60,786 nt of DNA from a virus (taxonomy: Duplodnaviria > Caudoviricetes). This document shows positions 21,840-23,456 of the stretch, piece by piece. The notes below the pieces were generated by a model. The model did no database searches, had not been told where the DNA came from, and worked only from the letters and a program-made list of their open reading frames with translations. Position numbers and translations under genes: made by a program. Each line of letters starts with the position of its first letter. Positions within the stretch are counted from its first letter, which is position 1. The stretch is from positions 1 through 60,786 of the IMG/VR virus record IMGVR_UViG_3300034062_002901. The stretch is one strand, 5' to 3'.

Positions 21840-22748
21840 ATGGCAATCTCACGTGCACAACTGGTGAAAGAGCTTGAGCCGGGTCTCAACGCTTTGTTCG
21901 GTATGGAGTATAGAAACTACGAGAACCAACACACCCAGATTTACACCATCGAATCTTCAGACCGCGCGTTTGAAGAAGAGGTGATGGAATCTGGCTTTGG
22001 TGAAGCCCCTGTGAAGACCGAAGGCGCTGGCGTTTCGTACGACCAAGCGCAAGAAGTTTACACAGCGCGCTACACCCACGAGACCATCGCTTTGGCGTTC
22101 TCGCTGACCGAAGAAGCCGTTGAGGACAACCTCTACGACCGTCTGTCGGCCCGCTACACCAAGGCATTGGCCCGCTCAATGGCTCAAACCAAGCAGATTA
22201 AGGCTGCGGCTGTGCTAAATGGCGCCTTTACCACCTCTATTGGTGGCGACGGTGTTGTTCTGTGCGCAACCAACCACCCGACTCTGTCTGGCCCTAACTT
22301 GGCCAACACCTTGGCAACCCCTGCCGACTTGTCCGAGACCGCCTTGGAACAAGCTCTGATCGACATTGCTGCGTTTACCGACGAACGCGGCTTGAAGATC
22401 GCGGTTCAGGGCCTGAAGCTCATCATCCCGAAAGAGTTGATGTTCACGGCTGACCGTATCCTAAAGTCCACTCTGCGTGTGGGCACTGCTGACAACGACA
22501 TCAACGCTGTTCGCAACATGGGCATGGTGCCTCAGGGTTACGTGGTCAACAACTTCCTGACCGATCCAGAAGCGTTCTTTATTAAGACTGACGCTCCTAA
22601 CGGCATGAAGATGTTTGAGCGCGTGTCGTTGAAAACCGGTTTTGAAGGCGACTTTGATACTGGCAACGTTCGCTACAAGGCTCGTGAGCGCTACAGCTTT
22701 GGCTTCAGCGATCCACGCGGCTTGTTCGGTTCGCCCGGCGCGGCCTAA
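21840..22748 (+). CDS. Major capsid protein
   Basis: MAISRAQLVKELEPGLNALFG...YKARERYSFG.SDPRG; followed by a strong terminator. Confidence 0.9.
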   Translation: MAISRAQLVKELEPGLNALFGMEYRNYENQHTQIYTIESSDRAFEEEVMESGFGEAPVKTEGAGVSYDQAQEVYTARYTHETIALAFSLTEEAVEDNLYDRLSARYTKALARSMAQTKQIKAAAVLNGAFTTSIGGDGVVLCATNHPTLSGPNLANTLATPADLSETALEQALIDIAAFTDERGLKIAVQGLKLIIPKELMFTADRILKSTLRVGTADNDINAVRNMGMVPQGYVVNNFLTDPEAFFIKTDAPNGMKMFERVSLKTGFEGDFDTGNVRYKARERYSFGFSDPRGLFGSPGAA

Positions 22749-22762
22749 TGGTCGAGTAAATG

Positions 22763-22793
22763 GAAAAAGGGGCCTTGTGCCCCTTTTTCTTTT
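22763..22793 (+). terminator. Terminator hairpin GAAAAAGGGGC-cttgt-GCCCCTTTTTC
   Basis: 11-bp perfect stem after the major capsid gene. Confidence 0.85.
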
Positions 22794-22812
22794 GGTGTAT
22801 ATTGAGCGCATT

Positions 22813-22885
22813 CCGGGCCTTCCGGTGTATCAAACAGTCCCGGCTGACGACATGCAGATTGATACGCCTAACTTGCATGTAAGGA
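22813..22885 (+). ncRNA. Candidate pseudoknotted 5'-UTR RNA element
   Basis: Three interlocked complementary pairs ending at the AAGGA RBS; upstream TTGTGC-N17-TATATT promoter-like sequence. Confidence 0.5.
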
Positions 22886-22892
22886 AACAATC

Positions 22893-23456
22893 ATGGCATT
22901 GACCACATTCTCCGGCCCAGTCTCTTCCCTCAACGGCTTCATCACCACAATTTCCAACTCTTCCACAGGTGCCTCCGCCTTTAACGCGAATACCACTGCC
23001 GTTACGATGACGGGTGTTGGCGGCACGGGTGGGCGCACCTTGTTTGAGATGGATACTAACGTCGCTCTGGGTTCGTTCTCTAATGCCCTGAAAGCCGAAG
23101 TCACTTACGGTGCTACTGGTCGCACGACCGGTCTGGGTTCAGCCTTTGTTGCTGAGTTGAGCCTGTCTGCCGGTACATCTTCTGGTAATTACGCTCCTCT
23201 TGAGATCGAGTTGAATGCTCCTACTGGGGCTTCGACAGGAACTTTAACGAGCTTTATCCACGCCTCAACTCAAGGAGCGGGCGTTGCAGCGGTTGACGAC
23301 AATGCTGTGTTCTTTAACCTTCAAGGCGTAACGGCAGGCTCTGGGCACATTTTTCAAACTGGTACAACGCTTGGAAGTGCAGGAGCCACCATCAAGGTTC
23401 GGGTTGGAAATACGAATTTCTTCCTGCCACTGTACGCCACTCAAATCACCACCTAA
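22893..23456 (+). CDS. Putative virion structural protein (Gly/Thr/Ala-rich)
   Basis: MALTTFSGPV start; composition; position. Confidence 0.7.
   Translation: MALTTFSGPVSSLNGFITTISNSSTGASAFNANTTAVTMTGVGGTGGRTLFEMDTNVALGSFSNALKAEVTYGATGRTTGLGSAFVAELSLSAGTSSGNYAPLEIELNAPTGASTGTLTSFIHASTQGAGVAAVDDNAVFFNLQGVTAGSGHIFQTGTTLGSAGATIKVRVGNTNFFLPLYATQITT

Follow-up and report, generated by a model that had tools for sequence, protein, structure and literature searches.

Comparative evidence for a chained double pseudoknot in the leader of a hypervariable phage gene

The window analyzed here is the whole of IMG/VR record IMGVR_UViG_3300034062_002901 (Duplodnaviria; Caudoviricetes), 60,786 bp that make up a complete phage genome and end in direct terminal repeats. 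Our comparisons show that a short plus-strand leader between its major capsid protein gene and the next gene (22813-22885) forms, as RNA, a real and conserved chained double pseudoknot. More than 100 distinct sequences in two clades, one from lakes and one marine, share four covarying helices and invariant junctions, and it is this comparative signal, as read from the alignments, that decides for the fold and not any property of a single sequence. The same comparisons establish the strand of the fold, its conservation, its position between a -10-like hexamer and a Shine-Dalgarno (SD) sequence, its linkage to one downstream gene and its single copy. Cultured Pelagibacter phages carry the element, as do uncultured lake phages that are very common, and its place is at the expression signal of what is probably a hypervariable virion gene.

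Architecture of the leader

An initial annotation, made from the window alone, had drawn three interlocked helices, P1, P2 and P3, in the strand order P1a-P2a-P1b-P3a-P2b-P3b. Helix enumeration on the plus strand places all three at exactly the positions drawn, and covariation in relatives supports each of them. That annotation missed a fourth helix, the short hairpin Px, and gave P3 8 bp, of which relatives conserve the inner 6 (22850-55 with 22875-80) and no more. With Px included, the full order is P1a-P2a-Pxa-P1b-Pxb-P3a-P2b-P3b. The outer two pairs of P3 take their A and G from an invariant AGA and are not conserved as pairs, since relatives carry CUCGCAUG or CCGCAUG there. Px and P3a lie inside P2; the Px loop is held by the 5' tail through P1, and P3a by the 3' tail through P3, so that about 68 nt form a compact knot into which the two ends of the leader are folded. 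Three short invariant junctions (A, AC and AGA) lie at the meeting point of P2, Px and P3. The parts of the element are as follows.

22813-22817 with 22839-22843, plus strand: helix P1, CCGGG with CCCGG, 5 bp
22824-22833 with 22859-22868, plus strand: helix P2, 10 bp, one of them G-U
22850-22857 with 22873-22880, plus strand: helix P3 as first drawn, 8 bp, one of them G-U
22813-22817, plus strand: P1a (CCGGG), 5' strand of pseudoknot helix P1, partner 22839-22843; 93-96% of alignment cells paired
between 22817 and 22824, plus strand: linker P1a-P2a, variable
22821-22825, plus strand: "Mid" segment UCCGG, potential partner of P1a in an alternative 5' hairpin; the end of the segment and the start of P2a share two bases
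22824-22833, plus strand: P2a, 5' strand of P2, partner 22859-22868; 10 of 10 pairs change on both sides, about 95% of cells paired
22834, plus strand: junction A between P2a and Px, an invariant column of the 61-sequence alignment, kept in the marine clade too
22835-22846, plus strand: hairpin Px (CAG/CUG), 22835-22837 with 22844-22846, 3 bp; its 6-nt loop U+CCCGG (22838-22843) carries P1b
22847-22849, plus strand: junction ACG between Px and P3a; AC invariant, and kept also in the marine clade and HTVC023P
22850-22855, plus strand: P3a (ACAUGC), 5' strand of pseudoknot helix P3, partner 22875-22880; 81-88% of cells paired
22856-22858, plus strand: junction AGA between P3a and P2b, invariant in 61 of 61; kept in most marine leaders and HTVC023P
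22859-22868, plus strand: P2b, 3' strand of P2, partner of P2a
22869-22874, plus strand: linker L3 between P2b and P3b, variable in sequence and length, with gaps or insertions in both lake alignments
22875-22880, plus strand: P3b (GCAUGU), 3' strand of P3, partner of P3a
22881-22895, plus strand: SD sequence AAGGA (22881-22885), spacer and AUG (22893-22895), directly 3' of P3b

Relatives keep these helices with different bases. P1 pair types include CG/UA and GC/AU/CG, and other P3 strand pairs are UAGUAG/CUACUA, UUAUAG/CUAUAA, CAUACA/UGUAUG and AUGCAG/CUGCAU. The outer and inner pairs of Px are invariant and its middle pair takes all four Watson-Crick forms (AU 50, UA 14, GC 6, CG 4; n = 74). 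At the inner end of P2 the window itself has two adjacent compensatory pairs, AA/UU, where most relatives in the 61-sequence alignment have UG/CA. This swap (22830-22834 and 22858-22862) replaces an otherwise near-invariant G before AC, and is a stem-swap variant made by nature.

Comparative evidence in lake relatives

Scanning IMG/VR with the capsid sequence gave 80 loci, and nhmmer, run with two element queries (the window and relative L001) over 81 loci, found the element in 74 of them, always as one copy and on the plus strand. Five of the seven loci missed have only 0-115 nt of flank after the capsid gene, a sixth (L079) was recovered by a covariance model, and in the seventh (L031), which has about 2.2 kb after the capsid gene, neither nhmmer nor the covariance model finds the element. 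A MAFFT alignment of 61 distinct elements, built without structural input, pairs 93.5% of 1462 cells under the four-helix structure, against 27.0-42.3% when the 3' partners are slid by 1-3 columns. Nineteen of the 24 pairs change on both sides, with 213 compensatory cells in all. None of 500 column shuffles matches any of the five observed measures; this control yields no probability and is inflated by kinship, and the slid controls, which keep the relatedness of the sequences, are the better guide.

The covariance model used here encodes P2 and Px only, so that P1 and P3 are helices it does not know. It gives one match in each of 78 sources, and in the 74 distinct rows aligned by it P1 is 95.9% paired and P3 81-88%, the latter figure being low because P3b is misaligned in rows of the CUAGG type. 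The 74-row alignment contains 57 G-U cells, each of which would be an A-C mismatch on the other strand, and the structure therefore belongs to the plus-strand transcript. The earlier claim of a compact, conserved RNA structure on this strand is thus borne out by covariation in all helices and by these G-U cells. The complete genome of the window holds one copy: searched without filters, the element reaches 88.3 bits, and the runner-up site 11.3 bits.

The window sequence alone, without relatives, is only suggestive. As a control for chance we used 5000 dinucleotide-preserving shuffles of 22805-22895 (91 bases), of which 203 contain a helix of at least 10 bp and 27 a chain of interlocked helices reaching at least 5/8/6 bp. 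Minimum-energy folding with nested pairs alone gives an ordinary value (z = +0.85; 160 of 200 shuffles fold as well), a measure that is uninformative here because the element is a pseudoknot. Summed duplex energies of the four helices come to about -27 kcal/mol before loop penalties, against -19.0 for the best nested fold. The unconstrained nested fold of the window pairs the AGG of the SD sequence with a CCU at the end of P2b, so formation of P2 would free the SD sequence.

These data bear on the simplest alternative, that there is no functional RNA here and that the pattern reflects chance complementarity, a coding region or a site acting at the level of DNA. The ordinary nested-fold energy would agree with this, as would a mechanically called open reading frame of 40 aa (22760-22882) that overlaps the element. 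Against it stand compensatory changes in all four helices and in two clades, G-U pairs that fit the plus strand only, element lengths (87-100 nt) that differ by non-multiples of three, and the finding that none of the 5000 shuffles gives an interlocked chain of at least 5/10/8 bp. Because of the covariation counts we consider this reading refuted, as far as sequence comparison can refute it, and leave it scarcely any probability.

The same architecture in marine phages

The closest named relative of the window phage is Phage DSL-LC04, whose capsid gene shares 79% nucleotide identity with that of the window; more distant capsid relatives are Pelagibacter phages HTVC023P and HTVC027P, Planktothrix phage Pag-Yong1 and Roseobacter phages CRP-901 and CRP-902. 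Judged by model matches, by alignment and, for HTVC023P, by reading, the architecture of the lake element is also that of HTVC023P, HTVC027P and their relatives. A model built from lake sequences only matches HTVC027P just 5' of its MANTTFSGP gene (20.7 bits, E = 8e-4). With the HTVC027P capsid we gathered 80 marine loci; 32 of these show the gene start by its peptide pattern and give 28 distinct leaders, and the 48 without such a start in the retrieved flank were left out. The lake-only model matches 12 of the 28 at E<=0.05.

When the 28 marine leaders are aligned, 95.3% of 616 cells are paired, against 22-47% for slid partners, and in P2 all eight pairs covary with 100% pairing. The marine P1 is CUAUAC/GUAUAG, with compensated variants in three leaders (L184, L216 and L251); P1a positions were taken by a best-complement search, which is biased towards pairing, and it is the fixed position and the three compensated variants that carry the argument. 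Junctions A, AC and AGA are retained, and a TATAAA-like hexamer lies 5-7 nt 5' of P1a in the 28 leaders. In the HTVC027P-type clade P3b (CUAGG) overlaps the SD sequence by 2-3 nt, within CUAGGAGG. HTVC023P, by reading, has TATAAT, 7 nt, P1 CCUAG/CUAGG, P2 UUUUGUAG/CUACAAAA, Px CUG/CAG and P3 UAUAG/CUAUA, followed by C-AGGAG. The record 023Pt_psg01 fits in part by eye and not by the model. A BLASTN search of the element against 50,697 phage records returned nothing for the lake type and HTVC027P only for the marine type.

The leaders of Pag-Yong1 and CRP-902 were considered as members and rejected, as their architecture, read by eye only, did not fit. At the same gene position Pag-Yong1 has a different, G+C-rich hairpin (L082, 3440-3512) with a loop, CCGUCUCC, that by eye is complementary to the SD region GGAGACGG. 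Several unrelated structured leaders may serve the post-capsid gene in different clades.

A leader bounded by transcription and translation signals

The element lies between signals for both ends of the leader, next to the following features.

21840-22748, plus strand: major capsid protein gene (PHROG 371 major head protein; Pfam PF25209, Phage_capsid_4), context outside the element
22762-22790, plus strand: intrinsic terminator of the capsid transcript from a terminator scan, a 12-bp stem followed by a T run
22775-22803, plus strand: promoter-like site, TTGTGC (22775-22780; -35-like, 3/6), 17 nt, TATATT (22798-22803; -10-like), overlapping the 3' half of the terminator

Relatives likewise have a G+C hairpin and a T run 3' of the capsid gene. 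The promoter-like sequence over the terminator had been pointed out before: its sequence and a conserved -10-like hexamer hold, and most relatives have a weak -35 part. In 66 of the 74 distinct relatives P1a is preceded by a TAnnnT hexamer, and a -10-like hexamer lies 7-10 nt 5' of P1a in 69 (9 nt in 50). The -35 is poor (at most 3/6) in 60 of the 74, where it overlaps the terminator tail, and matches TTGACA at 5-6 of 6 positions in seven, including L003, L005, L006, L058, L067 and L080, in which the leader lies 3' of inserted genes. The -10 region is not a repeated promoter word of this phage (7 genome matches against 11.1 expected).

At the other end, AAGGA at 22881-22885 follows P3b directly, just as the initial annotation had it abut the ribosome-binding site of gene 22893. 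In all 74 distinct relatives the AUG lies 9-14 nt 3' of P3b, and the SD sequence, of the AGG/GGA type in nearly all, begins 0-2 nt after P3b and is unpaired in the knot. From the hexamer we place the transcription start near 22810, about 7 nt downstream of it, which would leave 0-3 nt free ahead of P1 and no unstructured RNA ahead of the SD sequence. On this placement the fold would run from about 2-3 nt after the predicted start to the SD sequence and make up the whole untranslated leader. In mRNA stabilizers of the ompA type, base pairing starts within a few nucleotides of the 5' end. The spacing that would put pairing so near the predicted 5' end of the leader recurs, P1a following the hexamer at 7-10 nt in the lake relatives counted above and at 5-7 nt in 29 marine-type leaders. 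Contigs of relatives from three of four metatranscriptome runs cover 22758-22905; being assembled contigs, they attest the presence of the leader sequence and carry no ends, strand or level.

These signals bear on the idea that the element is a self-cleaving ribozyme, which would give read-through transcripts a defined 5' end, or an RNA that blocks 5'-3' exonucleases in the way of viral exonuclease-resistant RNAs (xrRNAs). Its compact double-pseudoknot topology with both tails tucked in would suit either role, xrRNAs likewise having their 5' end tucked into the fold, and the element lies right behind a possibly leaky terminator, with contigs from RNA libraries spanning both. However, such contigs cannot show ends, the -10-like hexamer at a fixed distance argues for a 5' end made by initiation, and no Rfam ribozyme matches. 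The helix order is also unlike the known plans. Ribozymes resembling that of hepatitis delta virus (HDV) are nested double pseudoknots with the strand order P1-P2-P3-P3'-P1'-P4-P4'-P2'. HDV-like ribozymes, theta ribozymes included, are likewise small, compact and doubly pseudoknotted, whereas the element is a chain; it is without the loop-loop contacts of the twister plan, and pistol differs in helix order too. Cleavage or exonuclease blocking is, in our view, very unlikely.

The promoter-like site is also where a long series of genes on the same strand begins, and a structured RNA directly behind a promoter at the head of such a series could be a processive antitermination RNA like put, with the nascent leader binding RNA polymerase for read-through of terminators further down the virion operon. 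However, no strong intrinsic terminator is found downstream: a terminator scan gives 18 terminator-like sites against 13.1 expected, and a 12-pair stem only at the capsid terminator. The element is present in a single copy per genome, its fixed spacing to the SD sequence would be left unexplained, and its architecture differs from that of HK022 put RNA, which consists of two tandem stem-loops behind a promoter. We regard antitermination as extremely unlikely, and neither it nor cleavage or exonuclease blocking has positive support.

The leader travels with its downstream gene

The gene that follows the element combines a fixed start with a variable body.

22893-23456, plus strand: downstream gene, 187 aa; N-terminus MA.TTFSGPV conserved, remainder hypervariable

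Its protein has no match in Pfam, in PHROG or among PDB sequences, and its 744 homologues are unnamed. Genes at the equivalent position are annotated as "cement protein" in DSL-LC04 and "minor capsid protein" in Pag-Yong1. The likeness of the window protein to the former is confined to the first 12 residues, 9 of them identical, and the DSL-LC04 protein has no PDB relative. An AlphaFold2 model of the downstream protein from 31 homologues is poor (mean predicted local distance difference test score 49.6). The product is probably a capsid-associated protein with a hypervariable body. Among relatives the N-terminal codons differ synonymously, which points to selection on the peptide.

When genes are inserted at this locus, the element stays with the MA.TTFSGP gene (L003, L005, L006, L029, L032, L071, L072, L075, L079, L080, L137 and L141) and therefore belongs to that gene and not to the capsid gene or its terminator. 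The initial annotation, which tied the leader to the capsid locus, was right to see in it the leader of gene 22893; the tie to the capsid gene and terminator does not hold.

Between otherwise close phages (the window and L001-L263) the N-terminus of 12-17 residues is kept and the gene body replaced. As far as the gene sequences indicate, cassettes seem to be exchanged downstream of a fixed expression module and an anchor peptide.

What the leader might do

How the fold acts can at present be approached only by weighing alternatives. We tentatively favor a model in which it is a constitutive, cis-acting leader that armors and insulates expression of the gene behind it, a reading we hold to be possible and somewhat short of probable. 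We envision an mRNA with its own promoter immediately downstream of the capsid terminator, and the element would be the whole of the 5' untranslated leader of that mRNA. P1 would tie down the first nucleotides of the transcript, so that decay dependent on the 5' end could not engage, and no single-stranded RNA would be exposed between +1 and the SD sequence. A leader satisfied by its own pairings would not mispair with the ribosome-binding site or with the variable coding cassette downstream, and the SD sequence at the foot of P3 would remain available whatever cassette follows. Effects on message stability and on translation would be expected, and presumably no trans-acting partner would be needed. 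Such a leader would explain why promoter, leader, SD sequence and first codons are conserved as one module before a hypervariable body. It would also offer a testable case of phages keeping expression constant while they swap a gene body, with the natural compensatory variants as ready-made stem-swap controls.

Several observations weigh against this model. The transcription start is a prediction, made with a -35 of at most 3/6 in most relatives, and a generic promoter scan does not list the site, whose score falls below its threshold. Contigs of relatives from RNA libraries cross the predicted start (from 22775 or 22769), so that there is either read-through RNA or carried-over DNA. Elsewhere, as in the ompA leader, one simple 5' hairpin is enough to protect the end; with four helices and invariant junction purines the element seems more elaborate than armor requires, and these features would suit a binding pocket. 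The overlap of P3b with the SD sequence in the HTVC027P-type clade looks repressive, to judge from its position. Finally, P1a can pair with 22821-22825 in an alternative 5' hairpin (in the lake alignment 90% of its cells pair; slid by +/-1, 57-66% do), which would compete with P1 and the first two pairs of P2. Row by row this hairpin is sterically feasible only in the CCGG-type subfamily, where it hints at switching and could be a folding intermediate or a switch. No alternative fold is common to all subfamilies.

Junction bases that stay invariant while all helices covary are also what one would expect of a translational operator, in which a conserved phage or host protein (for example the highly conserved capsid protein, a ribosomal protein or an RNA-binding protein) recognizes the junction and either excludes the 30S subunit from the SD sequence or traps it there, coupling synthesis of the virion protein to assembly. 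The hallmark of such operators, a conserved 5' leader structure beside the ribosome-binding site of the regulated gene, is found here, with the SD sequence 0-2 nt after P3b throughout and overlapping it in the HTVC027P-type clade. There are precedents in the leaders of T4 gene 32 and of the E. coli operons for S15 and S4. In E. coli, leader pseudoknots of rpsO (S15) and the alpha operon (S4) gate use of the start site by the 30S subunit. These too are pseudoknotted at the ribosome-binding site; theirs include the SD sequence or the AUG and are bound by known ribosomal proteins, whereas the SD sequence of the element lies just outside P3 in most members. The T4 gene 32 leader, a stabilizer and autogenous operator, has one small H-type pseudoknot with an unstructured tract between it and the ribosome-binding site. 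Like the present element, this pseudoknot stands at the 5' end of a phage mRNA leader. It is linked to message stability and control of translation, and its regulatory role is also noted in passages of PMC10690425. Compared with it, the present element has four helices that reach the SD sequence, and its predicted virion product shows no sign of RNA binding. An operator is further opposed by the lack of an identified candidate partner, by an SD sequence that is not itself sequestered in most members and by the want of a family-wide alternative fold. Autoregulation by the gene's own product is improbable in that only its first ~12 residues are conserved, as a peptide, MALTTFSGPVSS, without basic residues. 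We judge an operator to be on the unlikely side, though worth serious attention.

The same conserved purines between covarying helices are typical of aptamers, and the three-helix junction could be the pocket of a riboswitch, in which binding of a small molecule or ion would stabilize the knot and alter access to the SD sequence. Known H-type pseudoknot riboswitches are preQ1-I and preQ1-II, SAM-II and guanidine-III. P2 and P3 of the element likewise form an H-type arrangement with the SD sequence at the 3' edge of the second stem, and the competing 5' hairpin of one subfamily would supply a possible switch. In contrast to these riboswitches the element has an extra hairpin and a second pseudoknot in loop 1, and its L3, which would line the pocket, is variable. 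The regulated gene encodes a putative virion protein and not a metabolic or transport function, no expression platform is common to the subfamilies, and no Rfam riboswitch matches the element at E<=10 or 12 relatives at E<=0.1. A riboswitch therefore strikes us as improbable. The initial annotation had proposed a switch, riboswitch-like or ribozyme-like RNA; nothing that would speak for it turned up, whether a ligand, cleavage or an alternative fold across the family.

Searches of RNA families and of the literature agree with the earlier statement that the element could be assigned to no named family. With the 4227 models of Rfam 15 and the family gathering score as criterion, the whole window gives 0 matches. 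At E<=10 the region 22600-23100 gives only nine weak matches of small RNA or small nucleolar RNA type, mostly over the terminator, and 12 diverse relatives including HTVC027P give none at E<=0.1. The freshwater-2 motif (RF02980) has no match at 22805-22895 at E<=10, and its three matches elsewhere in the genome reach at most 14 bits, against a cut-off of 49.9. Literature searches found no description of the element. Fremin et al. (2023; PMC10690425) reported 8495 candidate structured RNAs from IMG/VR, including some that lie no more than 25 nt 5' of a phage gene; main-text passages make no mention of the element, which the supplementary candidate lists may hold under a number. Portions of a pelagiphage genomics paper (PMC9599517) leave the element undescribed and contain 0 occurrences of the words intergenic, promoter and terminator.

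If the element binds something, it would represent a new regulatory RNA class. A further reading, which seems to us rather doubtful, takes the knot for a new RNA class that senses a ligand or factor, resists nucleases or processes itself, carried by phages that are among the most abundant in oceans (HTVC023P-type, infecting SAR11) and lakes. Were it so, the knot would control the amount of a variable capsid-surface protein per virion, and its fold, in which the two flanking tails clamp a three-helix junction, would be a previously undescribed structural type.

Other observations

An exact 20-mer of the element core occurs on eight contigs of metagenome-assembled genomes (L270-L277), two of them 58-60 kb long. 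The genomes are labeled Nitrosomonadales, Armatimonadetes, Acidibacter, Caulobacteraceae, Chloroflexota and Nanopelagicales; most likely these are mis-binned phage contigs that carry no host information.

In L003, L005, L006, L029, L032, L071, L072, L075, L079 and L080, inserted small genes separate the leader from the capsid terminator. By eye, the start of the gene inserted in L079 resembles what we take to be the motif of a GIY-YIG homing endonuclease.

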